DNA of 64,000 bases from a virus (Duplodnaviria > Caudoviricetes): the IMG/VR virus record IMGVR_UViG_3300013121_000023, positions 1 to 64,000 of that record, one strand, 5' to 3'. The translations under genes were made by a program, and so were the position numbers. Under the pieces are notes generated by a model. It was not told the origin of the DNA and ran no database searches. It was given only the letters and a program-made list of their open reading frames with translations. Positions 5,623 through 57,177 of this stretch are shown here, one piece after another; within the stretch, counting starts at the first letter, position 1, and every line of letters begins with the position of its first letter.

Positions 5623-5625
5623 TTT

Positions 5626-27968: not shown

Positions 27969-28006
27969 TAGCTAAATGAAAAGGGCCACCGTTTTGGTGG
28001 CCCTTC
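27969..28006 (-). terminator. terminator between convergent operons, TTTAGCTA tail on minus strand
   Basis: AAGGGCCACC-gtttt-GGTGGCCCTT; lies inside the standard-code ORF 27972-28637. Confidence 0.75.
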
Positions 28007-28013
28007 TCTTTTT

Positions 28014-28637
28014 TAAGTTGCCGTCACCAGCAATCATTGCCTCGCCATCTTTTATTGGTGGTTTACTCATACTGAAAGCTTTGAGCATCCTGCTCTCGGC
28101 TTTCGCTTCTTTCTGGCACTTGCCAGTCGTATAAGCACTGAGTTTGTATCTCAGCGGCAAACTTGCACATGCCGCCATTGAACGGCGCATTATGTGCAAA
28201 CCAGCTGTAAAGCATTTGTATCTGTCTGATACAAGATCTTTACCAGTCCAGGTACTCACGATGGGGTCACTGTCTGGTACGGTGCCGGTGCCGATGTTTA
28301 TCTGCATCATGCACCACGACCTGCCTCCATCACCACGACCTAGACGGCCTATACCGAAGTCTACGTCTCTTCTGTAGCCGCTTTCAAATAGCGCTACAGA
28401 AGCTAGTAGACTAGCTGTCCTGCCTCTACCGTACTCACCGGAGAATACGGGTTTTTCTTTCTCGTTATAGGCAACATCTACGATAGCTGATGCTATCGCC
28501 ATGTACCTGCTCTCTGCTTCTTCAAGTGTTTCTTTAGCTTCTGGTACATGACTACGGGTAACCCTGCTAACAGGGTTCCATGTATTCATGTACGTAAACA
28601 GCCAAAGAACCAACTTTGCCTTTACGGCTGCGTTCAT
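28014..28637 (-). CDS. lysozyme/lytic-transglycosylase-like protein, candidate endolysin (TTA-terminated)
   Basis: ALFESG catalytic-Glu-like motif, SWCMMQI, LSAYTTG; GAGGAG RBS. Confidence 0.55.
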
Positions 28638-28736
28638 GGTGACTCCTCGTTTATGTTCTTAAGTTAAGAAACCCATTGTGTTGTCTTTTTCGCGTTTATC
28701 AAATAGATAAAAGCGAAGCAACACAAAAAATCGTAT

Positions 28737-29195
28737 CTACTTACGAAGTTTTTTGTTTTTCACCATTTTTGCCCAGCTGTTTTTACTTTGTGTTTCTACC
28801 CATTCTATATGAGCGTCATATTCTGTACACACACCATCTACAAACTTTATCATCCACATTTCACTGTCTTCACCTACAAGTGTTAGATAAGAATCTGTTT
28901 CTACGTACGGTGCCAAAAAATGCATAGTATTGATAAATGAACAAACACTTTTCCTTGAGTAGTCAGTGAATGCTGTACACTGTAGGCACTCATTTTCTTC
29001 ATCTACTTGAAAGCCAATTTCTTCTAGCACTTCTTTAAGTGACTCTACATCGCTATTTTCTGCGAAGTCAAAGTCTAGTTTTCGTTTGTTGTGCCATTTA
29101 GCGCATTCTCTAATCTTTCCTATTATTTGTATTTCTTCTGCACCGCCTTTAGGTATACGTATATAACCATCTTTTATATGGAATCCGTAACCCAT
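28737..29195 (-). CDS. hypothetical protein
   Basis: 152-aa ORF, TAATG coupling. Confidence 0.65.
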   Translation of the reverse strand: MGYGFHIKDGYIRIPKGGAEEIQIIGKIRECAKWHNKRKLDFDFAENSDVESLKEVLEEIGFQVDEENECLQCTAFTDYSRKSVCSFINTMHFLAPYVETDSYLTLVGEDSEMWMIKFVDGVCTEYDAHIEWVETQSKNSWAKMVKNKKLRK

Positions 29196-29350
29196 TATTT
29201 TACCTCTTCAATATATCCACAATCTACGCATACTTTGACTTGAGTCATTTTAGTAGGTCTACCGCTTTCTGGAGACGATATAGTTACGTTGTTGTGCCCT
29301 TTCATGGAACACACGAATCTAGCTAGCACTATCTTCAGAAATCTAATCAT
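29195..29350 (-). CDS. small Zn-ribbon-like protein (51 aa, below ORF-track cutoff)
   Basis: MIRFLKIVLARFVCSMKGH...VCVDCG; resembles 51304 and 51564 genes. Confidence 0.5.
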   Translation of the reverse strand: MIRFLKIVLARFVCSMKGHNNVTISSPESGRPTKMTQVKVCVDCGYIEEVK

Positions 29351-29366
29351 GTTGGTTCCCGGTATC

Positions 29367-29660
29367 TTATACCCACCAAAACGGCTTAATTTCTGTTGTG
29401 GGTATAGGATCTACTGACTTTTGTTTTTGTACCGTTGTCGGTACCTGTTTAATGGGCTTCTTGTTGGTAACTACCCTAGGTGCCTCCATATACGTGTACA
29501 CAGCGGAGGTAAGCAGTTGCTTCTTGGTGCTATCGAGTTCCTCAAAAGGCTTTCTGTTCCTAGGATTGACCATACTGAGCACCAGCTCTTTGGTGGGCTC
29601 ATCGTACTTGGAACCGTTAGCTATAACATCTTGTATAAGCAGATCGTATTTACCGCCCAT
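29367..29660 (-). CDS. hypothetical protein
   Basis: Start trimmed to MGGKY to avoid overlap. Confidence 0.5.
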   Translation of the reverse strand: MGGKYDLLIQDVIANGSKYDEPTKELVLSMVNPRNRKPFEELDSTKKQLLTSAVYTYMEAPRVVTNKKPIKQVPTTVQKQKSVDPIPTTEIKPFWWV

Positions 29661-29682
29661 GTAAGCATCGAATACCGATGAC

Positions 29683-29988
29683 TTACTGTTTATTGTTTTT
29701 ATTTCTGGAGACTTTTCTAGTTCTTTCTCCAGGCTCAGGTACGGCAGCGATGGCACTTTCAGATACGCCAACTCTACGGGCGAGATCTTTGGCAGCTGAT
29801 ACCCTACGCTTTTCTTCGGCATGTTTTAGCTGCTCCGCATTCTGAACTAGAAAATCAGTAACAATAGCACCCAGGAGCGATTTCAGAGTCGCCCTGGGTA
29901 TTCGTTTGTTCATGACGGCTCGGTACACATTTAGTAGCTCCCAAGCCTCTTCATGCATTTCTATGTCTAGGTGTTTAGACACTTTCAT
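29683..29988 (-). CDS. putative small DNA-binding protein
   Basis: Ribbon-helix-helix-like N-terminus, basic tail. Confidence 0.45.
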   Translation of the reverse strand: MKVSKHLDIEMHEEAWELLNVYRAVMNKRIPRATLKSLLGAIVTDFLVQNAEQLKHAEEKRRVSAAKDLARRVGVSESAIAAVPEPGERTRKVSRNKNNKQ

Positions 29989-30025
29989 GCGTTGAATATA
30001 CACGCATGAAATAGCATCTCAACCA

Positions 30026-30667
30026 TAAAGAGCCGGCTACGTACAAAGATGCCTGGGCCGTAAACGGGTAGTCTAGGAGAGACCTAGTACCGATTATTTT
30101 TCTACCACCCAGTATGTCGCCAGACACTATTCTTCTTACTATACGAGCACACTCTTTACCGTCGTCGTTCTTCTGCCCAGAATCGGCAGTGACCCAGTAG
30201 TACTTACCGTTTTCGTATTCTTGCCTTATGAACAGACATACGTGCTCTGTGTTTGTATTGTGGTCTTTGCCCCACAAACCATCAGATATGAAAACGGTAT
30301 CATACCTTTCTGGCAGCACTCCTACAGCGTACAGCTTGAATGGTGCCTTACCACCATTGAATACGAAGGACATGTTTTGGCCGGTCTTGTACGACAAACC
30401 GTACTTCTCGTCCGTTCTGTTGACGTACTCTTTCTTCCTACAACCCAGTCTCCAGTGTAGCCATGACGGTAGAAAACCACAGGTAGTCCCCTTGCCACCG
30501 TAGTCTATCGTTATCTCGGCAAACCTGGCATCGCCAGTATTTGATGGTACGTAGGCAGATATAAGTCTGTGCGCGAACTCACGAACCTTATCTGGGTTAG
30601 TATTGCCCAAAACGATCCCCTCATCTGGAACCGTAGGGAACTCCTCTGACCAAGTTTCCTCAGACAT
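30026..30667 (-). CDS. putative NlpC/P60/CHAP-like amidase (TTA-terminated; standard ORF to 29975)
   Basis: TTCGFL Cys motif and TEHVCLF His motif. Confidence 0.5.
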
Positions 30668-31466
30668 GATTGTTCCTATCTATGTTTGGGTCTGTTCTGG
30701 TAGCCACCCAGAAATCGTTACTGTATCTAGACTTGATGTAGCTTTCGTGCATCCAGCAATAACCAGAATCGCCCCAATTTCTACCCCAAGAGTTTCTTAC
30801 CAGGAACGACCTTTCATGGCCGTCTTTCACGCCCACAATAGCCATGGCGTGCTGACCTACTATCTCGCTCTCTACAGGAGACATCCATAGTAGGTCTTTT
30901 GTGCCGCCATACTCAGTAAAAGACTTGCTGACCGCGGTACCAAAAACTACCGGATGATTTGCTTTTATGGCTGTAGCTATGTCATCTATCAACGAATCGT
31001 CTTCGTCTATACGGTAGAACCCGTTTATGGTGTTGCCGTCTGCATTTGTATAGCAAATAAGCTCGGGCCTCTTATTGACCTTGGCTACATCGTAAACCCA
31101 GTCTGTTTCAGCACACACACCATGGTCTCTAATAGACAGAAAGGCGTAGTGTATGTATGTACCTTCGTCTAGCTCCGTACCAGCGTGATAGGCCCTGGCG
31201 TTGTAGTACGTAAACAACCTGGATAGCTGAACTACTACATCGTTCTGTATGCCCAACAACAGCTCGAAGCTGTCGCAAGTAGCATTGGCTACACACGAAC
31301 TAAGCGGTCCTTGGTCTGATATAGGAGTCGCTTCAGGAAGTATGTGTACTGAGTTAGAAGTAACGGCAGCTAGGTTGGCTCTGATAGCAGAGAACTTCCT
31401 TCTACCTGTTATCCTTGGATGCTTTTCATCACCCGGTGTCGGGTCTTTTTTCCATCCGAACTTCAT
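30660..31466 (-). CDS. papain-family (C1) cysteine peptidase
   Basis: DQGPLSSCVA, GQHAM, RNSWG..WGDSGY motifs. Confidence 0.9.
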   Translation of the reverse strand: MKFGWKKDPTPGDEKHPRITGRRKFSAIRANLAAVTSNSVHILPEATPISDQGPLSSCVANATCDSFELLLGIQNDVVVQLSRLFTYYNARAYHAGTELDEGTYIHYAFLSIRDHGVCAETDWVYDVAKVNKRPELICYTNADGNTINGFYRIDEDDSLIDDIATAIKANHPVVFGTAVSKSFTEYGGTKDLLWMSPVESEIVGQHAMAIVGVKDGHERSFLVRNSWGRNWGDSGYCWMHESYIKSRYSNDFWVATRTDPNIDRNNHV

Positions 31467-31798
31467 TTGTTGCACTCCTTTTCTATATCTTCGCAGCTGA
31501 CCCTACTAAGGCATTCTGGATTTATATTGACACCGGCTTTTAGCTTACGAACACAAAAATCCTTGAAACTACCGCCGCCTTTTGGGTGAGCTTCCTTACA
31601 ATTCTTGGCCGTCAGGTTGGCCTCTGCTTTAGCGCAAGCGTCTTCTGGGTTATCTGGCATAGGTACAGTAGGAGCAGGTTTAGGCGACGGCTCCAGTACC
31701 GATGAACAGCTAGAAGCTGCATGCGTAAACAGCTGCGTTACAAAGCCTATTACAGCTGTAGCAGCGACAACCTTCAGGTTACCAGTATGCTCGCTCAT
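31463..31798 (-). CDS. Cys-rich exported protein/lipoprotein
   Basis: Hydrophobic N-terminus, ASSC, Pro linker, six further Cys. Confidence 0.55.
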   Translation of the reverse strand: MSEHTGNLKVVAATAVIGFVTQLFTHAASSCSSVLEPSPKPAPTVPMPDNPEDACAKAEANLTAKNCKEAHPKGGGSFKDFCVRKLKAGVNINPECLSRVSCEDIEKECNK

Positions 31799-32214
31799 TT
31801 CCACCACTCCTTAAGGGCGTTCACAGCAGCGGTACCTACCGCTGCTCCGATAGCCACAAAAGCAGACTTTGAGTTGTTTGCCCTCTTGAACTCTTTTTTG
31901 TGCTTCTCGAAGTCTTCCTTGTGTTCACTGATGGTCTCACCGTGTTCCTTGGATTTGGCCTCAGCACGCTCAGCCATTTCCACTGCCCTCTCAACTAGCT
32001 TACTAATAACTGTGAGTATCTCCGATACATTCTTTAGAGACTCGTTTACACCGTGTATTTCCCCTCCCATTCTGTCTAGTCTCACCTGCGTATCCACGAA
32101 ATGTTCATTTTGTCGGGCATGAACATACTTCATACGCTTTTCCAAAACGGAAAGGCGAGTCTCTACATCAAGCCCATCTACTGACTCGGGGTATACATCC
32201 GGTTCATCGGTCAT
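31795..32214 (-). CDS. coiled-coil protein with C-terminal TM helix (holin/XhlA-like)
   Basis: GGAGG RBS; architecture and lysis-like context. Confidence 0.5.
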   Translation of the reverse strand: MTDEPDVYPESVDGLDVETRLSVLEKRMKYVHARQNEHFVDTQVRLDRMGGEIHGVNESLKNVSEILTVISKLVERAVEMAERAEAKSKEHGETISEHKEDFEKHKKEFKRANNSKSAFVAIGAAVGTAAVNALKEWWK

Positions 32215-32301
32215 AAAAATCCTCCAGGCTTCATTTTACCTGGGTATAGATCTTTACGGGAGCTAAAGAAGAGGTAGCGTTTCCGCTTCCTCTTCTAACG
32301 T

Positions 32302-33495
32302 TAACGCAGCCAAGTCCTCATCCACCAAGTCTGCGCCGCGCATGATAGCGCCAGCGTAATCTTGGTAGGTGAGTCTCTTGTCCAAATCCGGGGCTGACTT
32401 AGCTAGAAAAGACAAAATGTTCGACAGAGCATACCTATTGTTGCCCGAAGGTACGCTCTCCATGTCTCGCATCGGTGAATCCCAAATGTCTTTTACTCTG
32501 GCTACCTCCCCCTTGCTCATCTTGGCGCTGAGCTTCTTGCTCACTGCATTCCATGTGAGCTTTTCTTCCGCCGCTTCTCTTATTGTGCTGAGCGTTTTCT
32601 CTATGCTGGCTTCCCCCAACACATCTCGAACTACGTCACCAGCTGTGAGCAGTATCGTTTTTGTGTCTGATTGATACGTCTCTGGTGAGAGCCTGATGCC
32701 TGATGGCAGCCTCTTACCAAGATGTACTTCCTTCATGGCTGTTTCACCAATAGCCAAGTTCGTACACCAGCACCTGATGAAGAAACCCCTTATCGAGAAG
32801 GCTCCAACGCCGTAATCAGAGTGTCGCATCTCCAGCCCAAACAGCATGGGCTCCCCAGGTATTGGTGTGAAGATCTTAGGCACAATGACCCTCGCAGAAA
32901 ATCGGAGGTCCGAGAACAGAGCTTCTGAAGCCACTGCTCCGATCTTCCCTATCTCGGAGACAATGCCGGCCAGTAGCTCATCGCTATTGAACGGCTTGTA
33001 GTGGTTGGACAGGAACGCCTTTATCTCAGGATGCCCGGCGCCTGCTGACATGCGAACCAACCAGTCTTTATTCAATCCGGGGTTTTTATCGAAGTATTTA
33101 TTGAGCGTGTGACTAAGCAACTCTTTTTTCGCTGTAGTCCACTCGTCTTCCTTGTCACCCTGAAGAAGACTGTTGATGTATACCTTTGGGATTCCCGCGA
33201 CAGATGCTATCTGTTGGATAGCGTTTCTGTGCATAGGATACTCATTTGTTGAGTTTCTCTTGCTGGCCAGTATAGACTGTCCACTCACCCCAAACTGAAG
33301 TTCTGACCCCTTAACAACATGATCTCTTGGTACGTCTTTCTTAAGTTGCTCCACAAGTGAAGCAAATTGCGCTTTCCCAGTGTCGATCTGCATCTGCATC
33401 TTTGCGATGGCGTAATCCTCTGCTTTTTTGTTAGCCTGCGCATAATCTTCTGTTCCATGATGAAAACGGTTTCCAACAACGTCGTTGTTCAACAT
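32302..33495 (-). CDS. DUF932/DUF945-like phage protein (TTA-terminated; standard ORF to 32263)
   Basis: AFLSNHYK, HSDYGVGA, RCWCTNL motifs; terminator GAAGAGG..CCTCTTC-TTTAG lies after the TTA. Confidence 0.7.
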
Positions 33496-33634
33496 TTGAT
33501 CTTAGTCCTTTTTTAGCGAAGACTTCTTCGCACGGCTCTCATGCCAGTGCTGGGTGGTTTTTTGTCTTTAGAAAACTTTTGTATAAACGTGTCATGAGAG
33601 GCCCGAAGTATTTTTCAATTCTCAAAAAATAATC

Positions 33635-33662
33635 TTGACACAACCAACACGGGCTTTATAAA
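33635..33662 (+). promoter_or_regulatory. sigma70-type promoter
   Basis: TTGACA-16 nt-TATAAA in a divergent intergenic gap. Confidence 0.6.
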
Positions 33663-33680
33663 GTCCAAGGAAGATGAGAC

Positions 33681-33956
33681 GTGAGCGACGGATCATCTAA
33701 GAGACAAGTGGCTGTCACGACCAAGAGCGGTCGTGCCATAGGTGAAATACTGCTAGAAATAGTAGCGATTCGCCGAAATGATCGTACGTTTAAAGAAGTG
33801 AACGTACACCTGAACGTTGGTACAAAAAGATTGACTATCTTCAGAAGTAATCTAAGTGCTGTCATAGAAGCCCTTAAGAAAGCGTCTGAGGTAGCTGACA
33901 ATATGTACGTAGAAGCGTACACAGAGGAACTAGGAGACCAAAATGAACATCGATGA
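33681..33956 (+). CDS. hypothetical protein
   Basis: First ORF after the promoter. Confidence 0.55.
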   Translation: MSDGSSKRQVAVTTKSGRAIGEILLEIVAIRRNDRTFKEVNVHLNVGTKRLTIFRSNLSAVIEALKKASEVADNMYVEAYTEELGDQNEHR

Positions 33957-34419
33957 CTTCAAGAAGTTGCTCAAGGACGGTAGGTATCAGAATGCGGCGT
34001 CGGCTAGTAAGGCCCTTGGTCGCTCTTCTATGACAGAAGAAGACAAGACGGCTGCGAAGGCCGCGATTGCTCGCAAGTTCAAGGTCGAGAAGACGGCCGA
34101 GAAGGCTCCAGCTGCTAAGGCGGCTACCAAGACGGCTGCTAAGGCTGGTGCGAAGACTGGTGCGAAGGCTGGTATTAATCTCCCAGTTGCTAAGGCGGCT
34201 GCCAAGGTAGAGAAGGTGGTGAAGCGCGGTCCTGGCAGGCCTCCCAAGACTGATAAGAAGGCGGTAGCCCCTGCGGCACCTGTTAAGAGAGGCCCGGGGA
34301 GGCCCAAGAAGACAGTAGAGGCTGCTACCAAAAGCGCCCCCACTGCGAGCGCTCCTGCGAAGCGTCGTGGCCGCCCACCGAAGCAGAAGTCTGCCTCGTC
34401 TGAAGCTACCGCAGTCTGA
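33943..34419 (+). CDS. histone-like AT-hook protein
   Basis: AGGAGA RBS; Lys/Ala repeats; three GRP AT-hook-like motifs. Confidence 0.75.
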   Translation: MNIDDFKKLLKDGRYQNAASASKALGRSSMTEEDKTAAKAAIARKFKVEKTAEKAPAAKAATKTAAKAGAKTGAKAGINLPVAKAAAKVEKVVKRGPGRPPKTDKKAVAPAAPVKRGPGRPKKTVEAATKSAPTASAPAKRRGRPPKQKSASSEATAV

Positions 34420-34448
34420 TTTCAACACCTAGAAAGAAGGAAAAGAAC

Positions 34449-35171
34449 ATGGCAACTGTTTCTGAATGGATTGCTCTTCTGCAAAGCGGTAAGTACCAAG
34501 GCGTCGGCGGCGCCAGCAAGTCTCTCGGGAAGACAGCTAGCAGCAGCGGCTGGTCGGATAAGGAGCGGGCCAAGGCAAAGACTGCTCTTGACACCTACTT
34601 TGGCGGTGATGCCAAGGAGGCAACAGCTGTTGAAGCTGAGCCTGCCCCCGTGAAGATCATTCACGCCAAGACTTCTGAAGGTAAGGCGGTACCTGTTAAC
34701 AAGACTCTTGCCGCACCAAAGGCAAAGAGGGGCAGCTCAGGTACTATGCTAGAGCAGCAGGCTGCTAATGCCGGTGCCAATATGGTACCTGGTATCAAGG
34801 CGCTTACAGATGCAGACATGGTTGCTCGACTGAATGCGTTTTCGAGCGATCACAACCTGCATCAGACCTTGGCCGTTTTGAATATGGCCATTTCGCCAGT
34901 TGGTGCTGGTGGGAAGTCTCTGGCCGACATGTACCCGGCAATAATGGACAAGGTTAGAGAACTGGCGCACAAGGTACTGGACAGGCAGCTGTCTGTTGGC
35001 AGTACTTCTATTCCTGCGGCTTCTAGCGCAGAAGCCAGCACAGCTTCAGTAGTCGAGGCAGCTGAAGTAGAGATAGACGAGGATGCCGTGCCTGCCGTGC
35101 CTGCTACCGCTTTTAGGCGTCAGCCTAAAGAAGAGGTAGTAGACGCTGAGGACGCTGCTGGTGACCTGTTA
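34449..35171 (+). CDS. protein with N-terminal domain paralogous to 33943 (TTA-terminated; standard ORF to 35180)
   Basis: Shared LL..G.YQ....ASK.LG motif; acidic tail. Confidence 0.65.
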
Positions 35172-35178
35172 TTTAGAT

Positions 35179-35211
35179 AAAGGAGGGGCTTAGGCCCCTC
35201 CTTTTTAGCTA
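35179..35211 (+). terminator. hairpin terminator with TTTAGCTA tail
   Basis: AAGGAGGGGC-ttag-GCCCCTCCTT-TTTAGCTA. Confidence 0.8.
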
Positions 35212-35588
35212 GCCCGAATCTTCAAAAGGTTCGGGCTTTCTTCATTTATGGCTACCAAGGCTTCTCCCAAAGAAACCTCATCGCCCATGTCCACTGGTTG
35301 CATGAACCATGACACAGATGCGGTTTCGGTTTCATATGTACACTTGAGATAGTCTTTTGTTTTTTCACAAAACATAACGCTATGAGGGTTTATTTCTGCC
35401 ACCATTTCTTTAGCTTCTCTCAAGCTACGCACCTCAGATATAAGCCTCTTATAGCTAGTCACTGATCCGTCTGATGAAAGTACTTGATTCTTTGGCCAAA
35501 GGATCAATAGTAGGCCTTCTTTAGGTTCTTCAAGCCATTTTGCCTTTAGTAGTTGCACTATGTTTATAGCTTCCTTCATTATAGACAT
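35205..35588 (-). CDS. hypothetical protein
   Basis: 127-aa ORF. Confidence 0.55.
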   Translation of the reverse strand: MSIMKEAINIVQLLKAKWLEEPKEGLLLILWPKNQVLSSDGSVTSYKRLISEVRSLREAKEMVAEINPHSVMFCEKTKDYLKCTYETETASVSWFMQPVDMGDEVSLGEALVAINEESPNLLKIRAS

Positions 35589-35903
35589 ATGAACGGTGTA
35601 GCCTCCGAAATGGTCAAGGATCTCTTGGCCAAGTTTTCTTTTTATCTACCACAACTAGCCAATAACTGTAATGCTGAAGTAAAGATACGTCGAGGAGTAC
35701 CAGATGGGTCTTTTACCGTGGTCGTTACTTGGGCTAAACCAGATGGAAGCACATCAACGTTTACTCAGCCGTTTACAGCTGAGTATGTTTTTGGCGATAC
35801 TTACGATGACGACAAGCCTACTAAAGTAGGTTGTGTTAGACACTTCTGTATGGACATATACAAGAGTGTCACCATGATGAAAGCTAAGGAGTCCAAGCCA
35901 TGA
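35589..35903 (+). CDS. hypothetical protein
   Basis: First gene of a tightly coupled + strand operon. Confidence 0.55.
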   Translation: MNGVASEMVKDLLAKFSFYLPQLANNCNAEVKIRRGVPDGSFTVVVTWAKPDGSTSTFTQPFTAEYVFGDTYDDDKPTKVGCVRHFCMDIYKSVTMMKAKESKP

Positions 35904-36283
35904 GCTACACACTAACGGACGATGAGTTTGAGGCGTTTAAAGCGCTGGCCACGAAGTACGTAACAGACCAAGCAGAACTTAGAAATATAACGTCTTTTAT
36001 AGAGCACGTAGAGAAGAATAACGGCAGAGTTTCTTACTTTGCGGTTATCTTGTGGACAGAGGCTGGTACTGCATTGCCAGCCGGCGCTGTGTACCCTACC
36101 AACTGGCCTGAGTCGCTTAAAACCACAATAAAGCTAGCTAGACCTATTACTAAGAGCGACGTGGACAATACACTCAGATCCGTGGCTATAAAACCGGTTG
36201 GTATACAAATAACGACTACAGACCCAGCCGGTGTCCTAGGTCTTGTTACATATCCAGTAAAGTACGGAGTTGAATATGCATGA
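35900..36283 (+). CDS. hypothetical protein
   Basis: AAGGAG RBS, ATGA overlap. Confidence 0.65.
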   Translation: MSYTLTDDEFEAFKALATKYVTDQAELRNITSFIEHVEKNNGRVSYFAVILWTEAGTALPAGAVYPTNWPESLKTTIKLARPITKSDVDNTLRSVAIKPVGIQITTTDPAGVLGLVTYPVKYGVEYA

Positions 36284-42895: not shown

Positions 42896-42898
42896 CAA

Positions 42899-44288: not shown

Positions 44289-44290
44289 TC

Positions 44291-44978: not shown

Positions 44979-44988
44979 GGGTTTTGTT

Positions 44989-47166: not shown

Positions 47167-47167
47167 G

Positions 47168-48515: not shown

Positions 48516-48910
48516 GGGCTTATCCAAGTCATTGGAAACCTATCTTGCCTAGCCCTAGCGTAATCAACTATATATTGCGGTGCTCCTATAGATTTAAGGC
48601 AGTCAGCATCCATATAGTACCTTTTTTTAGCATCGGTATAGTACGTACCGGGTATTTCCGTTTTTTTCACGTAATTGTCGACCAAGGCATATCTAGTGCG
48701 TTTCACTATAGCTATCAGCGCCCTAAAGGTTTCATCCTCTCCCAGAAACCAGGCGATATGCAGCATCGGCATATTCATAATCCTTTTTAGTAGTTCTACT
48801 ATTTCTTCGCAGCTTAGCTTTGTGCTGATTGTTCTAGCGGTCAGTAGAAACCATTTTGGATTTTCTTCCTCAGCTAGTTTGTCTATTGCTTCCGCAAAAT
48901 AACTTGTCAT
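48512..48910 (-). CDS. NPxLP-family protein (divergent)
   Basis: NMPMLHIAW. Confidence 0.6.
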   Translation of the reverse strand: MTSYFAEAIDKLAEEENPKWFLLTARTISTKLSCEEIVELLKRIMNMPMLHIAWFLGEDETFRALIAIVKRTRYALVDNYVKKTEIPGTYYTDAKKRYYMDADCLKSIGAPQYIVDYARARQDRFPMTWISP

Positions 48911-49403
48911 AGCTGGCACTGTATGCGTCTAGCACTTCTTTGTATAGATTGATCGAGGCTTTAAACACCTTTTTGTTTACCTCTTCAAATGTTTTCTTCA
49001 TGTACATAGGTATGTTGATATGCGGACTACTTCTGTTTGTATCGCACAGTCGTATCCTTTGACTACTGGTATGTTCATACGTAAGTACTTTGACTTCAAT
49101 GAGTATGTACAATGCAGATGAGATCATATCCATGACCATACTGTGATGTTTTTGCATGCATATTCGTTCATAACCGATTGTTACGTAGGTACACTCCTCT
49201 GTGTATTCCATCCATATGACTGGTAGTACTGGGTTGTGGAGTAGCGCCACTACGTAGTCCCGGGAATATGTGTAATCCTGGGAATCATGAACTGTGTACG
49301 AGCGGCCACCGCCCTTCCCAAGTATCGATTCTATGGCATCGATAAGCTCCAGTGCTGTGTGGGCGTTATGTAGTGCATTTATATTGTCTTTTCTGTGCGT
49401 CAT
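48900..49403 (-). CDS. NPxLP-family protein (TTA-terminated; standard ORF to 48870)
   Basis: HNPVLPVIW; TTA at 48902-48900. Confidence 0.6.
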
Positions 49404-50128
49404 ATCAACGTATCCTCCAGATCGTCCAACATTTCTTTCAGGTTTTTTATTTCGTCTTTATTGATCTGAACGAAATGGTCTATTATGTACTTGGGAGCAC
49501 CTACTTCATGCAGTATTCTAACTGCGTAAAATTTGTGTACACTAACATTATTCATGTGTATTTTGATGCAGTCTATAAAAGAGGTGTCCAGTATGTCACT
49601 TATAATTGACTCCATTGAGTCCATATGATCGTGCCAAATAATGGGTAGGCACGGATTTTCTATTATTGCTCGCAGTAGCAGTATTAGTCGCAGTGAGGTT
49701 CCTCTCTGAACAGCTTTATTTATATTGATTTGTTTTTTGGCATTTTGTACCGCTATATTTATGCTAGGCGCTGAATCGGCTTCTACTATGGCTTGTAGTG
49801 CATCTGCTTCTTGTTCCGATTTAACTAGCTCTTTTATCGCTACTACCGGTATTGGTGTACTCGATTTATCCCAAGGTATGCTCCAGTGTACATTCAGATT
49901 TCTGTTCGTATTGTGAGCCTTTATACATCTTTCGCAAGTCACTACCCGTATGTCATTAGCGTACCTAAGTCCGTTTTGATTAATGTATATAGGAGGTTCT
50001 TCTATTGAATCGTTACACGGAGTACCTTTTCTTATAGTGGAAATGTCTTTCATGTTTGTGCAAGCCAGGTATATATCGTCATCCATAGCATTTACGCACA
50101 GATGTATGTATTCCGGTTGTTTCGTCAT
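49400..50128 (-). CDS. NPxLP-family protein with N-terminal H/C Zn-like module
   Basis: H..C..VTCERC; ENPCLPIIW. Confidence 0.65.
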   Translation of the reverse strand: MTKQPEYIHLCVNAMDDDIYLACTNMKDISTIRKGTPCNDSIEEPPIYINQNGLRYANDIRVVTCERCIKAHNTNRNLNVHWSIPWDKSSTPIPVVAIKELVKSEQEADALQAIVEADSAPSINIAVQNAKKQININKAVQRGTSLRLILLLRAIIENPCLPIIWHDHMDSMESIISDILDTSFIDCIKIHMNNVSVHKFYAVRILHEVGAPKYIIDHFVQINKDEIKNLKEMLDDLEDTLI

Positions 50129-50901
50129 TTATTCATATATTTTGTCAGCGCCTTTATGGCAGTTGTTATTTTAGCTTCCGTTGATTCGTTAAACTTAATG
50201 AAATTGTGTTTTAGTTGCGGTGGAATACCCAACTTGTCCAATGTGTACATATTATACAAATAGAAGCAGTCTCTTATGGACTTGCTACAGCCCCAACGTG
50301 TGCCAGTTCTTAGTAGTGCTTCCTCTATATATGATAGTAGACACATTATGCTGTAATTGCCTGGATTGATGTACGCATCTCCAGTAACAGCTACTATTGG
50401 ATGTGTAAAAACTACCTTCATTACGTAAATAGCCACTGCCCTAGCTATTCTAGCCGCTGTATCTATATCTTTGATGTACTCGTTTGTGTATTCCAGTTCA
50501 CCGGCTACAGTCGATATAAGTACTATAATATCGTTTATGCTATCGGCCTCGGATAGTCCTCGGTCAAAAGAACTAATAGCGAAATTAAGCCGTTTCCCGA
50601 AATTATGACTATCGATAGTTCTAAATACAAGATAGTCCAACTCTTTTTTTACGTGGACAACATCAAACTCGTCGTAATTTTTTGGTGTGTTTACCCAGAC
50701 ATCGTTAGTAAAAGAGAATCCATCTACAAGCTCTATGCATTCTTCACATGTTACTTCTAGTTTGTTAACCGTCGCCAATACGTCTCTTTTATCTATACTA
50801 TATACGTATTTACCTGACACAAGCCTTATTGCAAGTGTTTCATTTGTACAAGGTATACGTGCTATCGACCCAGCGACGACGAACAAATGGATAGGTTCCA
50901 C
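50125..50901 (-). CDS. NPxLP-family protein with N-terminal H/C Zn-like module
   Basis: VTCEEC; THPIV; start GTG 50901 after GAGGAAAGG. Confidence 0.6.
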   Translation of the reverse strand: MEPIHLFVVAGSIARIPCTNETLAIRLVSGKYVYSIDKRDVLATVNKLEVTCEECIELVDGFSFTNDVWVNTPKNYDEFDVVHVKKELDYLVFRTIDSHNFGKRLNFAISSFDRGLSEADSINDIIVLISTVAGELEYTNEYIKDIDTAARIARAVAIYVMKVVFTHPIVAVTGDAYINPGNYSIMCLLSYIEEALLRTGTRWGCSKSIRDCFYLYNMYTLDKLGIPPQLKHNFIKFNESTEAKITTAIKALTKYMNK

Positions 50902-50903
50902 GA

Positions 50904-51320
50904 TTAAAACCTTTCCTCGTAGAAACGAGACCACTCTTTCAGACTTCTGTCTTCCCGTATGTAATCATGGGTACCCAAATATATTAGGTAATCAGTGTCT
51001 TTGTCCAAAATAATCAAGTAATGCAGAATGTACTGTATGGTGTGAAGCACTATTCTCTTATCTTGTAGCCAGAGTATAGGTAGCACAGGTAGACGTATTA
51101 CGTGCTGCAACGCTTCTGTTGCTGATTTGATGACGTTACGCCTATCATCCTCTGTTAGTTTACTTATGTTACTGTCTACCCAAAGCCTATGCTGAAATCT
51201 ATTGGATCTGTCTTGTGTCGTCCACATTTTCAATTCTTGTATACTAGCAACATCATCCAGTATTTTTAGGTCTCCAAACATGTTTACAGTAGACCAATCA
51301 GTACTAACCGTCCTGCTCAT
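50904..51320 (-). CDS. NPxLP-family protein
   Basis: RLPVLPILW. Confidence 0.6.
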   Translation of the reverse strand: MSRTVSTDWSTVNMFGDLKILDDVASIQELKMWTTQDRSNRFQHRLWVDSNISKLTEDDRRNVIKSATEALQHVIRLPVLPILWLQDKRIVLHTIQYILHYLIILDKDTDYLIYLGTHDYIREDRSLKEWSRFYEERF

Positions 51321-51567
51321 AGTTTTCAATCCAGTTCCACAAACATACTTCTGCGTTTACAGGTTTTGTTTTATGCTTACCGCAGTGAATACACTCATAT
51401 ATAAATAGATAATAGTGTTGTTCTTTTTTGCATATCGAACATGGTCTTATCTGTATTTCTACACGCTCCTTGAAATGAAATACGTGCCTTGAGAAGAAGC
51501 ATTTGATCTTGTCCATGTAGGTGCTTTTGTGCTTTTCTTCTTCATGATGCTCTCTATATGGGTTCAT
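51304..51567 (-). CDS. small Zn-ribbon protein (MNPYR paralogue)
   Basis: CSIC..CIHCG. Confidence 0.6.
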   Translation of the reverse strand: MNPYREHHEEEKHKSTYMDKIKCFFSRHVFHFKERVEIQIRPCSICKKEQHYYLFIYECIHCGKHKTKPVNAEVCLWNWIENYEQDG

Positions 51568-51845
51568 AAGTCCAGCATACCTCCTGGCATGTGCTCCCAG
51601 CATTTGTCATGCGAATATGGTTGAAGTGTTACTACGATTCCGCATCTGCTACATATTCGCGCAGTACGTGTATGCGTCTGTTGTGCTCCGCATACGTAAC
51701 AGCTAGCATCCTTGAACACTATCAGTTTTATCTTTTCGTGGTTGTGGCCAATCAGATTACATACCAGTTTTCGTATCCAGTCTACGGTAGTAGGTTTTTT
51801 CTCAGTAACATCCTCGTCTTTGTGTGCTTTTCTGTATGGGTTCAT
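51564..51845 (-). CDS. small Zn-ribbon protein (MNPYR paralogue)
   Basis: CNLIGH, CYVC..CSRCG. Confidence 0.6.
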   Translation of the reverse strand: MNPYRKAHKDEDVTEKKPTTVDWIRKLVCNLIGHNHEKIKLIVFKDASCYVCGAQQTHTRTARICSRCGIVVTLQPYSHDKCWEHMPGGMLDL

Positions 51846-52684
51846 ATGACGCCAGCCAACTTAAACACATCAAGCACTGAATCTTTGCATTGTTGATAGT
51901 CTTTTAGGTGAGACTTAAGTAGCTCTTCTTTTATGTATGACGGTATTTCCAATTTTTCCAACATCTTTATGTTGTACAGTGTCGCTACATCTTCATCTAT
52001 TTCTTTTGCCGTACTTGTTTTTCCTACTGCTATGTGAAATACACAGTCTGGTATCATTTCTATGATAATGCTCATTTTTCTAATCATTATTTCTTCTGGG
52101 TTGCTCACCCATATGATGGGTAGCATCGGGTTTCGGAATATACTGATAAGTGCTGTGGTGGCTATCCTAGATATGACGAAATACACATCTGCGTGTTTGT
52201 TATTTTCTTTCGTTATTTCTTTGAATTCTGCCACCTCTTTTCTAAGAAGATTTATGAGTGATTCTAGCTCAGGCAGTGTAGCTGCCGTACACATGCACTC
52301 TTGCAAATTGTGCATTGCTTGTATTTTGAGCTTAATGCGGTCTTTATTATCAGGACCAAATACGTTCCGCATTTCTATTTGTTCCATAAACACTTCTCTA
52401 GGGTATGTAGTTTGTATGTTTCTAGAAGCGCAAGTAAATAGTTTAGCTACATTTACACCACGATTGTTTAGCCTGGCAGCAGATTGGCAGTATGTACATG
52501 TCACTTCGCTGTACAGGTAAGAATGCATCTGTACTATCAGTTTTTCACCCTGTGGAGATGTAGCCTCCTTCGGTTTTACAGAGAAGAAGTTTTCTTTTCG
52601 GTCGTATTCGTATTGGTACTCTTTACACCATATGGCTATTTTTTCGCCCACCACAAACCCGTAATGAACCATCTCGTCGCTCAT
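51842..52684 (-). CDS. NPxLP-family protein with N-terminal H/C Zn-like module
   Basis: VTCTYC; RNPMLPIIW; GGCATAAGA motif and AGAGG RBS upstream. Confidence 0.65.
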   Translation of the reverse strand: MSDEMVHYGFVVGEKIAIWCKEYQYEYDRKENFFSVKPKEATSPQGEKLIVQMHSYLYSEVTCTYCQSAARLNNRGVNVAKLFTCASRNIQTTYPREVFMEQIEMRNVFGPDNKDRIKLKIQAMHNLQECMCTAATLPELESLINLLRKEVAEFKEITKENNKHADVYFVISRIATTALISIFRNPMLPIIWVSNPEEIMIRKMSIIIEMIPDCVFHIAVGKTSTAKEIDEDVATLYNIKMLEKLEIPSYIKEELLKSHLKDYQQCKDSVLDVFKLAGVI

Positions 52685-52716
52685 GGTACCTCTTGGTTCT
52701 TATGCCAGCTATCCAA

Positions 52717-52753
52717 AGCAAAAAGCCCAAGCATCTTGAAGATGCCTGGGCTT
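52717..52753 (-). terminator. intrinsic terminator
   Basis: Minus strand AAGCCCAGGCATC-ttcaa-GATGCTTGGGCTT-TTT, with one G.U pair. Confidence 0.7.
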
Positions 52754-52771
52754 CGTGCTTACCTCTTGCCT

Positions 52772-52966
52772 ATGCAACTGAAGGTAACACTGGTCGATGG
52801 GTGTACGATCCTTGACTCTGCCAAGCCGGCTGACGTAAAGACAGCCGTTGAGCAGAAGCTAAGGGAGTTCGACGAGAAGATGCAGCAAACTGGATGGGAA
52901 CCATTGATTCCATCCGAGCAGGCTCTTCTCCGAACCTTCTTGCTGTGGTCTCTAAACGAGCACTGA
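52772..52966 (+). CDS. small hypothetical protein
   Basis: 64-aa tail of the tracked ORF with protein-like composition. Confidence 0.5.
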   Translation: MQLKVTLVDGCTILDSAKPADVKTAVEQKLREFDEKMQQTGWEPLIPSEQALLRTFLLWSLNEH

Positions 52967-53174
52967 GCAGCTTGTTCTGGGAGTGAGCAAAGGCATGGGC
53001 TTCGTCCTCTTCAGAGAAGAGAAGCACCAGGATGCCGCCGCAGTCAGCAGCGTCTTCCTTTTCTCTGCCTACTCGCACCCTTATTACTTCGTACTCAGCG
53101 ATCCCTAGCGGCTCTATAACAGCGAACATCGCGCACCTCTCTGTTTCTGGCTCCCTCCTGCGGTAGCCGTACAT
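52953..53174 (-). CDS. hypothetical protein (TTA-terminated; standard ORF to 52770)
   Basis: TTA shrinks a ~195-nt antisense overlap to 14 nt. Confidence 0.5.
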
Positions 53175-53214
53175 ATGTACGTAAGAATATAAGCTATTTG
53201 GACATAAGCAAGAG

Positions 53215-53652
53215 TCATCCGTACGTTTTTAGTATCGCTTTCTTAATTTTCTCAAAAGCTCTGGCAAACCATTGATCGTCCATAGCCCGGTTTACGATCG
53301 ATATGTCTGGGTAGGGAGTTACGTACATCTCAGATGCCCTGTCCTTTCGTTGCCCTATGAACAAGATGTAGGGTGCTGTGTACAAAAACGACTCACCTGA
53401 TGGCTTATCGGGCGACGGCATACCCCTTACGTAAGTGGTACGTACGTCTTCGGAACGAAGATCGTACAGTTCGACCAACTTATCGAAGGAATGCCTTTTC
53501 AGCAGGCCTTTGTAACTTCTGTGCTTTTGAAAGCCCTCGGGTGCTTGTTCGTCCCCAGCTATTTTTTTTAGATAGGAGGACAAGCTTTTTGGAAGGCCTA
53601 TGATTCTACCGCCTCTTGGTACATCTTCGGTCAAAAGAACCCCAAATTTCAT
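53215..53652 (-). CDS. hypothetical protein
   Basis: GAGGTG RBS. Confidence 0.65.
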   Translation of the reverse strand: MKFGVLLTEDVPRGGRIIGLPKSLSSYLKKIAGDEQAPEGFQKHRSYKGLLKRHSFDKLVELYDLRSEDVRTTYVRGMPSPDKPSGESFLYTAPYILFIGQRKDRASEMYVTPYPDISIVNRAMDDQWFARAFEKIKKAILKTYG

Positions 53653-53699
53653 GGGTACACCTCTCTATATATCTAATGACATATTGTTCTGTTTTTGAG

Positions 53700-53737
53700 T
53701 AGCTAAAAATGAAAGAAGCCCCGGATGACGGGGCTTC
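53700..53737 (-). terminator. hairpin terminator with TTTAGCTA tail
   Basis: GAAGCCCCG..CGGGGCTTC inside the standard-code ORF 53665-54138. Confidence 0.75.
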
Positions 53738-53742
53738 AAAAA

Positions 53743-54138
53743 TAAAATGTATTTCTCTGCTTTCTTTGTGAATTTTTCCCAGAACTCGTCAATGTAGTTT
53801 TGTGTGCCCTCTATATCGTACCACATGGAGTAATCATATTCATCCGAATTAATGCCTGCCAGATTGACGAATGCAATGATGTCTGCGAGAATGCTCAACT
53901 CTAGATTGAACTGTTTACCAATGTTGAGTTCCAACAGGTCATTGCACAATGTCAACTCACGCTCATCCTCAATGTAGTGCAGCAGTGCCTCCTTGTAGTT
54001 CCCCGCGCAGGCGGACAACATTATCACATCTCCGAAATCTTCAATGTTCACATCGCTCTCAAAGCCCTCTTTGGGCAGAGTTGCCCAGACTCTCTTGGCC
54101 ACACTGTGCAGTACCCCGTTAACTTCTTCTGCTTTCAT
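53743..54138 (-). CDS. acidic hypothetical protein (TTA-terminated; standard ORF to 53665)
   Basis: Own promoter motif and AAGGAG RBS; TTA 5 nt before the terminator stem. Confidence 0.65.
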
Positions 54139-54230
54139 GGAAGAAAACTCCTTTCATATTTCTTATGTCGTTAAATATTGAGTATTTGCTGGTAGCTAAA
54201 ATAGAGGCGGCTGCGCCTCTAAAGACTAGA

Positions 54231-54581
54231 TTAGAGATTAAAGATTAGACAGTAAATTGCAAACACTGGTGTGCCTTTAATGAAATGCCTAGTCCGCCCC
54301 CGCCTCCCCCGCCTCAAATTTTCCTGAAACTCATTGTTTTTCTTTGAAGAAAAGTGTCTGTATACCGATTGTTCCTGCCCATCTTCATCATATGAGGTTA
54401 CTGTGAGTCGTCTCCCCCATAGAGAGGGACCGTATGATACGACAGTGCCGTCATTGAAAATGATTTCTGTCGATTGTGAGTGCCACAACTGTTTAATGAC
54501 GTAGCACCTAGCATCAATGCACAATTTCTGTTTAATGCCTTCCACCATCTCAAACACCTTACCATTTTCGGTATAATTCAT
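54231..54581 (-). CDS. hypothetical protein
   Basis: GGCATAAGA motif, AAGGAG RBS, terminator near 54193-54221. Confidence 0.6.
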   Translation of the reverse strand: MNYTENGKVFEMVEGIKQKLCIDARCYVIKQLWHSQSTEIIFNDGTVVSYGPSLWGRRLTVTSYDEDGQEQSVYRHFSSKKNNEFQENLRRGRRGRTRHFIKGTPVFAIYCLIFNL

Positions 54582-54678
54582 AACGAACTCTCCTTTCATA
54601 TATCTTATGCCACTTTTTTATTGTATTTGTTTATTTCCGGTAGCTAAAAAGAAAGATTGGTTTGTTCTATGCGGTGAC

Positions 54679-54965
54679 AAAAAAAAACGCTTGCATGACT
54701 GGTAGTGGTTCGCGCGCACCACCACCAGCCTCTCAATCACACTGTACTAGCTGTGACTGATTCGAACGGCCGCAAGCATTTGCCGTCCTACACCTGCTAC
54801 TAACGAACGGACCTACAGGTATTGGTCCGTTCCCGACTTAGCTCGTCAGTCTCGTCGGGTAGACTGACTGTCCTGATGACTTTTACAGTCATCTGCAATC
54901 TCGGTCAGATAAAATTGACCTTTTCAGGCTCGGACATGCCCTAGGATGGAACTTCCTTCCACCAT
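54679..54965 (-). ncRNA. candidate multi-pseudoknot ncRNA 1
   Basis: No long ORF; about 7 stems with three loop-to-downstream pairings; G.U pairs favour minus strand; promoter motif upstream and T9 run downstream. Confidence 0.65.
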
Positions 54966-55008
54966 TATTCTTATAGCACCAATTACTGTATTTTTTCCTT
55001 ACCTCAAG

Positions 55009-55044
55009 TAGCTAAAAAGAAAGCACCGTATGTGGTGCTTTCTT
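55009..55044 (-). terminator. hairpin terminator with TTTAGCTA tail
   Basis: AAGAAAGCACC..GGTGCTTTCTT-TTTAGCTA. Confidence 0.75.
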
Positions 55045-55350
55045 ATTGCCTCAGCATGTCTGCGCACGTACGCATAAACGCTGTCTGTGAGAGGGCAACG
55101 CTCTCATTCATTGCAGCCCATTCTGCAATACTCGCCTCACCCAAGACTTATACGTGCGTCTTGGTTAATTCGTCGCTACCGGCGCTCAGCGACGCGATGT
55201 GGCGGTCAAACACCACCATCCGTGGCATCGAGCCACGGTTTTCCCTTTACAAGGTTGGCTGGTACAACCTTGTACACGTGACCCCTTGCCTGGTTTTGCC
55301 CAGGCTTTGGGAATTAGACGTTTCGGCCGGTCGGGCATTCCGGCCTAGGT
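55045..55350 (-). ncRNA. candidate multi-hairpin kissing-loop ncRNA 2
   Basis: About 10 consecutive hairpins; complementary loops CACGTA/TACGTG; GC-rich island in an AT-rich region. Confidence 0.6.
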
Positions 55351-55848
55351 ATGTTTTCTTTTCATACCTTTTTTCTTATTACGTTTTATGTTCATGAATT
55401 TCTTTCTTGATTTATTCTTTCTTTTTGCCGTTACTGCTTTGGCCAACCATGGTGGCAAAAGTGTGTCGTCTGATTTGGCCATTCTTGCAAGCCACTGTGG
55501 ACTGTCTTTTATCATTGTAAGTACTGAACTTACTTTTTGTATAATTGTAGATGAGAAAAGCACCACCTTTGTTATTGGGTGGTCCAAAAACAACTTCAAT
55601 GCCATCTTTTTCATAGGTCGAGTGACCCTTACTATGTCATATATGTGAGGATGGTATCTGTTGTTTTTAAAATGCGCCCGCGTTATTACGTGACACGATT
55701 TGCCATACGCTATCTCCAATATTATTGAGCTTATTGCTATTCCCGGGTTGCATTCGTTACATGCGTAAGTGTAGTCTATAAATTCTTTCATGTATTTTTC
55801 ATATGCGTGCATCTCGTATCGTTTGTTACATTCCTTCATATGCCACAC
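55345..55848 (-). CDS. NPxLP-family protein (divergent)
   Basis: DHPITKVV; Lys-rich tail. Confidence 0.55.
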   Translation of the reverse strand: MWHMKECNKRYEMHAYEKYMKEFIDYTYACNECNPGIAISSIILEIAYGKSCHVITRAHFKNNRYHPHIYDIVRVTRPMKKMALKLFLDHPITKVVLFSSTIIQKVSSVLTMIKDSPQWLARMAKSDDTLLPPWLAKAVTAKRKNKSRKKFMNIKRNKKKGMKRKHT

Positions 55849-56359
55849 TCCTCAAATATCTGCACATCGTGCTTGTGAACGACTCGCTGACATTAAACTT
55901 TGTGAATGTGGATTCTATTAGGTCTACTTCTTTTTTGGCTACTGTTACACCAGCCATTACTGTTCTTGGAGTTGCGTATTTATCTGCTAGAAATAGGTAT
56001 ACACAGGCCGATATGACTCTACTAAGATGGCCGTCCTGCATCAATACTGTCAATGCTGGGTTTGCCTTCACTGCTCTTGCAATGCGCCTCTGCCTTATCT
56101 TAATGATTTCCTTTTTGTACTCTACGTCGTCTATCGCCCCAGTTGTAAAGCATTTACTATCCATCAGATATTCTATTTGATGGACATGTTCAGGCGATTC
56201 CGCTATGAGAATAAGGGCCAGTAGATAGTCAGAAATGTATTCCATTTCTTCTATATTCACTACTACGTATTCTTGGCTCAATTCAAGTGGCGTATCAGTT
56301 ACATTGTTTGCCCATTTTATTGAATATTTACCCTTTTCATATTTTGATTTTTTCGCCAT
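55826..56359 (-). CDS. NPxLP-family protein
   Basis: ANPALTVLM. Confidence 0.6.
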   Translation of the reverse strand: MAKKSKYEKGKYSIKWANNVTDTPLELSQEYVVVNIEEMEYISDYLLALILIAESPEHVHQIEYLMDSKCFTTGAIDDVEYKKEIIKIRQRRIARAVKANPALTVLMQDGHLSRVISACVYLFLADKYATPRTVMAGVTVAKKEVDLIESTFTKFNVSESFTSTMCRYLRSVAYEGM

Positions 56360-56865
56360 ATATCTCCATCTCCCTACTATCCAATGCAAAACACAAACCC
56401 TGCATCTTTTTCACGTCTTTGTATGCGTATTTCTTTATTTGCCTATATATGTACTTTGGAAACCTACCTGCTACTACCAAGTAAGCTGCATCCATAGCAT
56501 TAAATTCGTAAGTGCTGCCTATTTGAGGCTGCTCGAAGTCCTGGTTCTGATAGTAGTGCAGCGGTCTCGTCCTGTCACAAAAATGAAGTGCAAAGACGGT
56601 TATCAGGTGGGAACTACCTGTTTCCCACAATACTGGAATACATGGGTTTGTTCCCATGTTCTTGAATATCTCTGCGTAGTACCCAGATTCTGATGTTGAT
56701 GCATCTGGGATTCTATATTTTGTCAGTAGTGTGGCCGCTTTGTACAGTTCCTCTCGCGTACTCCATTTGTGCATAAGTGCGTATAGAAACTGTATCTGAG
56801 CCCCCTCTACTTCTATACCGGCACACGCCTCTTCAAACGAGTATGTCAACGAGTATGTCATCATA
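56337..56865 (-). CDS. NPxLP-family protein
   Basis: TNPCIPVLW; ATG directly after GGCATAAGA. Confidence 0.6.
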
Positions 56866-56934
56866 TATCTTATGCCTACTTTTAATTCCGAGTAGCTAAA
56901 GAAAGGAGACCCGCGGGGGTCTCCTTTCAAGCGC

Positions 56935-57177
56935 TAACTTTCCGGTGCCGGTGCCGGTGGCGGCGTTGGGGGCGGCGTTGTGGGCGGCGTGGTGGAGCAC
57001 CACCACATCCGGGGCGATGCCAAGTCTCCTAGCCACCGCTATCACCGCCAGGGCACCCGCTGCCGCGAGAGCACCCTTCGCCAGGGATGCCGCCCCGGCC
57101 GCCGCCCCGGCCTTTGCCAGGGCGCCGTAGTCGATACCACCGTTGTTGTTGTTGGCGTTGCCGTTGTTTTCGGACAT
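56935..57177 (-). CDS. small Ala-rich membrane protein (TTA-terminated; standard ORF to 56896)
   Basis: GC-rich codons; terminator GAAAGGAGACCC..GGGTCTCCTTTC-TTTAGCTA follows the TTA. Confidence 0.65.

Follow-up and report, generated by a model that had tools for sequence, protein, structure and literature searches.

We analyse here the first 64 kb (64,000 nucleotides, hereafter the window) of one 177,132-bp virus record, IMGVR_UViG_3300013121_000023 of IMG/VR, which carries direct terminal repeats and is rated complete. It is the genome of a tailed phage, with the large terminase subunit (3781-5622) and the tail sheath (21850-24960) both in the window, and its GC content is about 46%. Our subject is four sites of the minus strand, numbered 1 to 4, where a TTA codon in frame with a long open reading frame (ORF) is followed by a hairpin that begins 5-6 nt downstream; the question they raise is whether TTA, UUA on the messenger, ends translation in this phage. 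The features of the four sites are as follows (free energies, dG, in kcal/mol).

28014-28637, minus strand: site-1 gene, 207 aa to the TTA 28016-28014, 221 aa to the TAG 27974-27972 under the standard code
27981-28005, either strand: site-1 hairpin, extended by RNAfold to 27978-28008; 11 bp, 7 of them GC, dG -25.5, z -6.4
27968-27982, minus strand: site-1 U-tract and AGCTAC motif, enclosing the standard in-frame TAG 27974-27972
32302-33495, minus strand: site-2 gene, 397 aa to the TTA 32304-32302, 410 aa to the standard-code TAG; member of PHROG 1362, a family without assigned function
32268-32295, minus strand: site-2 hairpin, stem of 7 bp + 4 bp, GAAA loop, then TTTAGCTC; dG -19.6, z -4.5; TAG at 32265-32263
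53743-54138, minus strand: site-3 gene, 131 aa to the TTA 53745-53743, 157 aa to the TAG 53667-53665; codon log-odds 0.32
53715-53737, minus strand: site-3 putative terminator hairpin, 9 bp, 7 of them GC, dG -17.6, z -5.0
53699-53714, minus strand: site-3 U-tract and AGCTAC motif; of the motif, the TAG is out of frame and the TTA 53706-53704 in frame
56935-57222, minus strand: site-4 gene, 95 aa to the TTA 56937-56935, 108 aa to the TAG under the standard code; codon log-odds 0.44
56901-56928, minus strand: site-4 putative terminator hairpin, 12 bp, dG -26.6, z -5.9
56892-56900, minus strand: site-4 TTTAGCTAC motif; standard in-frame TAG 56898-56896

The first-pass annotation of this DNA had described a hairpin just 3' of an in-frame TTA at each of these places, and both direct reading of the sequence and folding bear it out. 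By RNAfold, with z-scores calculated against 200 shuffles, the four hairpins have a dG of -17.6 to -26.6 kcal/mol and a z of -4.5 to -6.4, and 0-1 of 200 shuffles folds equally well. A consensus scanner independently detected the hairpins of sites 1 and 3; it missed that of site 2 because of an internal mismatch in the stem, and that of site 4 fails its rigid rules because part of the T-run pairs in the stem. On the 3' side of each hairpin lies a T-run, then AGCTAC (AGCTCC at site 2). At sites 1, 3 and 4, 6-8 U are found within 9-10 nt after the GC core, site 2 being the weakest with 3 U after the stem. The same annotation had the standard stop arriving only in or beyond the T-tail, and this also holds: at sites 1, 2 and 4 the standard in-frame TAG is inside the T-run and AGCTAC motif, 1-4 nt past the hairpin, and at site 3 the standard stop comes only 47 nt past the hairpin. 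The site-1 hairpin is a predicted bidirectional terminator between the convergent genes 27258-27956 (plus strand) and 28014-28637 (minus strand), and TTA ends both.

Under the standard code all four hairpins lie within the ORFs; they are 3' of the translated region only if TTA ends translation. The ORFs themselves are coding-like, with 0.30-0.44 log-odds per codon (genome median 0.35) against -0.6 to -1.25 in the other frames. The site-1 gene (0.30) carries the conserved motifs ESGxRRDV and GDGGRSWC and is of unknown function; a Pfam search of the four genes returned no match above the cut-off, the site-4 gene showing a weak match to DUF7860 below it. Taking the TTA rate of the non-ORF DNA of this genome, 1.6% of trinucleotide positions, as the basis of all chance estimates, the p of finding a TTA in frame and no more than 3 codons from the hairpin at 4/4 sites is about 5e-6.

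We consider, with a probability of roughly 0.85, that the four hairpins are ordinary intrinsic terminators placed 5-6 nt past true TTA gene ends, UUA stopping translation beside UAA, UAG and UGA. As read from the DNA, the terminator module would consist of a stop codon, 0-9 nt, a GC-rich hairpin, a U-run and AGCUAC. Transcription is expected to stop in the U-run, 7-9 nt beyond the GC core. The predicted RNA end then falls at or before the U of the motif UAG at sites 1 and 4; at site 2 it probably comes just past the TAG, and at site 3 it is reached long before any standard stop. If a ribosome decoded UUA as leucine, it would be expected to melt the hairpin, defeat the terminator and run off the RNA, so that working terminators would require translation to end at UUA. 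It had been supposed that, with the standard code, these messengers would be nearly or fully non-stop. Judged from the usual 7-9 nt termination point, this appears clear at site 3 and borderline at sites 1 and 4, and probably does not hold at site 2, where the TAG would still be on the RNA.

The arrangement is not confined to the four sites. We scanned the whole genome for hairpins of at least 6 pairs with a loop of 3-8 nt, at most 2 unpaired stem bases, a dG of -11 or below and a T-rich tail on the 3' side; this compact-hairpin filter was used in place of a permissive scan on dG alone, which gave mostly false matches within genes. It yields 24 compact terminators that lie no more than 60 nt past the end of a gene on their own strand: 15 follow TTA (14 genes), 4 TAG, 4 TAA and 1 TGA. 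At eight sites the standard-code ORF reads through the hairpin, the four of the window and those at genome positions 65161, 113384, 123801 and 144062, and the standard stop is met 1-68 nt past it. An in-frame TTA precedes the hairpin at 8/8 of these read-through sites, with a gap of -1 to 16 nt, mostly 5-6; the spacing matches that between canonical stops and hairpins, 0-9 nt. For a TTA within 7 codons of the hairpin at all eight sites the chance p is about 2e-8. The two kinds of stop can be compared directly in the window, even at one and the same hairpin (35179-35204), which serves a TTA on one side and a TAA on the other:

35179-35204, either strand: bidirectional terminator, 7 nt after the TTA 35169-35171 of gene 34449-35171 (plus strand) and 0 nt after the TAA of gene 35205-35588 (minus strand)
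2724-2753, plus strand: canonical control terminator, 3 nt after the TAG of gene 2292-2720, then TTTAGCTA
54202-54221, minus strand: canonical control terminator, 9 nt after the TAA of gene 54231-54599 (minus strand), then TTTTAGCTAC

Terminator-bearing genes show a preference for TTA, 14/24 against 63/207 overall (Fisher p = 0.0036; p = 0.03 among free-standing stops). We rejected the idea that the hairpin is a signal required for termination at UUA, as only 14 of the 63 TTA-ended genes have one.

The sequence behind the hairpins is conserved as well. TAGCTAC occurs 72 times, 24 of them in the 8.9% of the DNA that is non-ORF, nearly all directly 3' of a hairpin and T-run. In the window a T-run followed by AGCTAC(T/C) is found at 27968-27982, 53699-53714, 56892-56900, 54193-54201 and 2750-2760, and about 20 more are spread across the genome; the motif also stands 3' of terminators that follow canonical stops and at convergent junctions. 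A few copies have no hairpin, for example 5620-5633 after the terminase TTA. The TAG of the motif is in frame with the upstream gene at 4/8 read-through sites, about one third being expected; since this is near the chance rate, the TAG is not present as a stop codon and falls in frame by chance only. A role as promoter was considered and rejected: the motif often faces a convergent gene 3-18 nt away, and is therefore part of the terminator. The T-run with AGCTAC was not seen in the structural regions (23 kb) of some 60 relatives.

The codon statistics agree with the terminators. The first-pass annotation held the terminator evidence to be independent of them; it is so in part, being a genuine second line of evidence in which the choice of TTA nevertheless leans on the reading frame. 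In 187 non-overlapping standard ORFs, with the last 20 codons taken as tail, TTA accounts for 54 of 50,031 body codons and for 56 of 3,740 tail codons, a tail/body ratio of 13.9. When the canonical stops are treated as sense one by one the ratios are 12.1 for TAA, 13.6 for TGA and 4.0 for TAG, and the highest ratio of any other sense codon is 1.8. The body TTAs that we inspected belong to spurious ORFs or to in-frame gene fusions. If TTA is counted as a stop, it closes 63 of 207 ORFs (about 30%), and the one-base stop-start overlap TTATG occurs 16 times, versus 2 TAATG and 6 TGATG. The tails that follow TTA (25 segments, 524 codons) score -0.23 log-odds per codon and equal lengths before it +0.29. 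All the canonical stops are still in use; TAG ends 26 ORFs, several with terminators directly after.

These figures bear on the reading by which the standard code holds, the ORFs running through the hairpins to TAG or beyond and TTA being a rare leucine codon that clusters near 3' ends. It has for it that the frames are open under the standard code, and that public gene calls use the longer ORFs (P0001, 649 aa; P0121, 1315 aa; P0241, 221 aa). It would leave TTA with the statistics of TAA and TGA, and strong terminators inside translated sequence at eight sites. Moreover the terminase ORF and the convergent gene 5626-6327 would share about 105 nt; no overlap exists if the terminase ends at its TTA, 5620-5622. 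Comparison with homologues adds to this, as their ends coincide with TTA and the tails are non-coding, and we hold this reading to be very improbable.

The homologues are most informative for the sheath. The sheath gene (21850-24957) is separated from the next gene (24997-25764, plus strand), by its position probably the tail tube and without a family match, by a single codon:

24958-24960, plus strand: TTA, sole separator of the sheath gene and the next gene

Sequence comparison makes this TTA the strongest homology anchor in the window for UUA as a stop. The match to the PHROG sheath profile runs to residue 1034 of 1036, the final residue of the sheath coding sequence of Vibrio phage D181 aligns with the codon just ahead of the TTA, and the conserved C-terminal motif of the sheath ends just before it. 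All of the 119 closest homologues cover the standard 1315-aa ORF only to residue 1036, and the fusion to the next gene, which the standard code would impose, is seen in 0/119. As a control pattern, the C-terminal motif followed by TRR (TAA, TAG, TGA or TGG) was found in 24 IMG/VR contigs; followed by TTA, it had no match in other IMG/VR records or in JGI metagenome contigs. For TTA-ended genes compared with three relatives, the orthologue end projects within -4 to 0 residues of the TTA in 17/24 comparisons, and canonical-stop genes show a like agreement. At site 1, nothing in 37 homologues, the best of them 54% identical to the gene product, matches the 13-aa tail. At site 2, the 149 representatives of the family have a median projected end at residue 392, the TTA being codon 398 and the standard end residue 410. 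Thus the proposal that TTA is the functional end is supported by a spacing equal to that of canonical stops, by homologue ends, by non-coding tails and by the absence of TTA from gene bodies.

Some observations weigh against this proposal. Site 2 may be a weak or partial terminator because of its tract of 3 U and of a downstream gene start 50 nt further. Its tail after the TTA, LTLEEEAETLPLL (13 aa, 32263-32301), resembles the true C-terminus of the orthologue of one relative, LTAEEDETLPPA (L006:20780-20830); the shuffle p is 0.003 for the pair and 0.0125 family-wise over the 149 homologue tails. The rest of the family has unrelated, variable tails, and the likeness may be due to chance or be the relic of an older C-terminus. 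The complete phage genome encodes no RF-1 or PCRF domain, and thus no release factor. Lastly, no enrichment of TTA in ORF tails was found in 60 IMG/VR relatives and three further contigs (L008-L067, L003, L005, L006); as no sampled relative shares the trait, the terminators and TTA ends draw no support from conservation.

The likeness of the site-2 tail keeps alive a reading in which UUA is a leaky or conditional stop, which mostly terminates and allows a low-level or stage-dependent incorporation of leucine and C-terminally extended isoforms, akin to bldA-type control or programmed read-through. The CUA-anticodon suppressor tRNA of the phage, which suggests a manipulated decoding of stop codons, could be taken in the same direction. 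On the other hand another TTA stands in frame within the site-2 tail, two codons further (32298-32296), the tails as a class are non-coding by codon usage, and the orthologue end falls within 4 residues of the TTA in the 17 of 24 comparisons mentioned above. Read-through at the eight sites, four of them in the window, would also send ribosomes through the hairpins and off the RNA. We judge this leaky reading quite improbable.

If UUA is a stop, how would the polypeptide be released? The balance leans modestly towards genuine recognition of UUA, as a fourth stop codon, by a release factor present in the infected cell. The likeliest agent would be a class-I release factor of the host with widened specificity (RF2 type, altered SPF region), by analogy with organelles, acting while no tRNA-Leu(UAA) competes. 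The phage has 10 tRNA genes, all outside the window: Lys-UUU, Val-UAC, Met, Thr-UGU, Ile-UAU, Arg-UCU, Leu-CAA, Leu-UAG, Tyr and the CUA-anticodon suppressor. It thus has tRNA-Leu(CAA) and tRNA-Leu(UAG) and no tRNA-Leu(UAA); these are phage genes only, and the host set may differ. The CUA-anticodon tRNA (amber suppressor, labelled "Pyl" by ARAGORN) lies at genome 135413-135485, though TAG still ends genes.

The lack of a tRNA-Leu(UAA) in a phage that supplies tRNAs for many other A-ending codons would equally suit an unassigned, "hungry" UUA, at which the ribosome stalls and is then freed by drop-off and peptidyl-tRNA hydrolysis (Pth2) or by a ribosome-rescue factor. The absence of a release factor domain from the phage fits this too, as does the over-representation of TTA before terminators given above: a terminator 5-6 nt downstream would place the stalled ribosome near the 3' end of the mRNA, favouring rescue. 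Besides, the phage has a gene for a Pth2-type peptidyl-tRNA hydrolase (genome 113077-113361, feature to 113407), which itself ends in TTA with a terminator hairpin 1 nt later, its standard stop lying 68 nt past the hairpin. Yet 23 TTA ends have the next gene start within 15 nt, inside operons (16 of them TTATG) and far from any mRNA 3' end, which disfavours a rescue route that needs such an end. About 30% of the genes, major structural ones included, would rely on slow rescue, and rescue by tmRNA would tag the products for degradation. The substrate of Pth2 is free peptidyl-tRNA, which also counts against this scheme. Stalling, the main alternative, is in our view unlikely, and recognition of UUA by a release factor is preferred. 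Two other routes were discarded: slippage by +1 onto a TAA or TAG that overlaps the TTA, for only 22 of the 63 TTA ends have A or G next, and editing of UUA to UAA, as pyrimidine-to-purine RNA editing of such a kind is not known.

The phage belongs to a large family of uncultured phages of 170-200 kb, with at most 56% identity in the terminase and 65% in the sheath. Megablast of the structural region against a phage collection gave no match; a search of related loci with the sheath protein alone also found none, and matches came with the sheath alignment. An Rfam search of the window had no match. In the closest relative (sample SRR11476867, sheath 65% identical) the called gene junctions look canonical, and since none of the sampled relatives has the trait, it is lineage-specific among the genomes sampled. 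Most relatives are GC-rich (56-68%) with TTA rare. Two that match the phage in GC content, L061 (46%) and L022 (49%), have 11.6-12.7 TTA per 1000 body codons; at that rate about 600 sense TTAs would be expected in this genome, and in effect none is present. This fits codon capture, by which TTA would have been lost under GC pressure and later reused as a stop.

A trait found in no sampled relative could raise the suspicion of an artefact, an error of assembly or base calling, or an engineered sequence, having turned real stops into TTA. Such errors would have to strike only in-frame stop positions, on both strands, and to erase the 600 or so sense TTAs expected. As a virus genome the record is complete and bears direct terminal repeats, and the standard-code products of exactly this DNA are in a public protein collection, so that we find this reading scarcely credible.

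Other observations were made along the genome. The sequence (G)GCATAAGA stands 10-50 nt ahead of gene starts; in many cases TATGAAAGGAG comes next, and many copies lie 25-40 nt past the AGCTAC motif. In the window it starts at 3171, 24984, 52698, 54161, 54603, 56868, 57697 and 60832; CATAAGA occurs 47 times in the genome, with 20 copies in non-ORF DNA. The sequence is a candidate promoter or leader element of the phage. The relatives carry upstream of the terminase a fused beta/beta'-like RNA polymerase gene of 2100-2500 aa. Two GTDB metagenome-assembled genomes, labelled Myxococcales and Anaerolineales (L068, L069), hold contigs of this phage family; one of these contigs, 176 kb long, resembles a whole phage genome placed in a bacterial bin. 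The search of genome contigs for a host gave only these two, both like binned phage.

Full-text literature searches found sense-to-stop reassignment only in mitochondria and plastids, with no case in phages or bacteria; if true, the present one would be the first such code change outside organelles. It would imply a bacterial host lineage so far unrecognised, or a phage-induced state, with an altered release factor specificity. The release factor or the tRNA set of the host would differ from the standard, and the change would escape tools, such as Codetta, that infer the amino-acid meaning of codons only. Gene callers using table 11 would mis-annotate about 30% of the phage genes, with a fusion of the sheath to the next gene, false C-terminal tails and false overlaps. 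The transcription units of the phage, with terminators 5-6 nt past TTA, would be built around a UUA-stop code; the terminators add a transcription signal that agrees with the translation signal.

Several known systems can be compared with this one. In human mitochondria COX1 and ND6 end in AGA or AGG, hungry codons at which a -1 frameshift leads onto UAG. Here also a sense codon without a decoding tRNA would mark the gene end; the difference is that a shift onto an overlapping stop (T-TAA or T-TAG) is possible at only 22/63 TTA ends. In the bldA system of Streptomyces, rare TTA codons stand inside genes at leucine positions and are translated, the decoding tRNA being limiting. TTA is likewise very rare in the phage, but stands only at gene ends.

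As in the intrinsic terminators of bacteria and phages, a GC-rich stem-loop and a U-tract lie a few bases past the stop, and some are bidirectional at convergent junctions. Unlike the usual ones, those of the phage have a lineage-specific AGCTAC after the U-run (24 sites), and over half of them follow a non-canonical stop.

The phages with recoded stops, crAss-like and Lak, in which TAG or TGA has become an amino acid codon (PMC7886860, PMC8346664), share with this phage genes that are mis-called under table 11 and a CUA-anticodon tRNA. The change is however opposite, from sense to stop, and TAG, TGA and TAA still end genes, which is not what code 15 or 4 calls for.

The nearest parallel is in organelles. 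UUA is a stop in NCBI table 23 (mitochondria of Thraustochytrium and other labyrinthuleans), in peDinoflagellate plastids (UUA/UCA) and in the mitochondria of Marsupiomonadales and Pseudoscourfieldia (UUA/UUG), and this has been attributed to recurrent mutations of RF2 (Ser204 substitution) or RF1, which are nuclear-encoded (PMC12574857). The phage is like them in that a leucine codon would have become a stop, is absent from gene bodies, is placed where homologues have their stops and closes a large share of the genes, about 30% here and over half in two peDinoflagellate plastomes (PMC12574857). It differs from these small organelle genomes as a 177-kb tailed phage that has no release factor of its own and keeps the three canonical stops. 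Its code works like NCBI table 23 without being a member of it, the phage being no organellar genome, labyrinthulean or green-algal.

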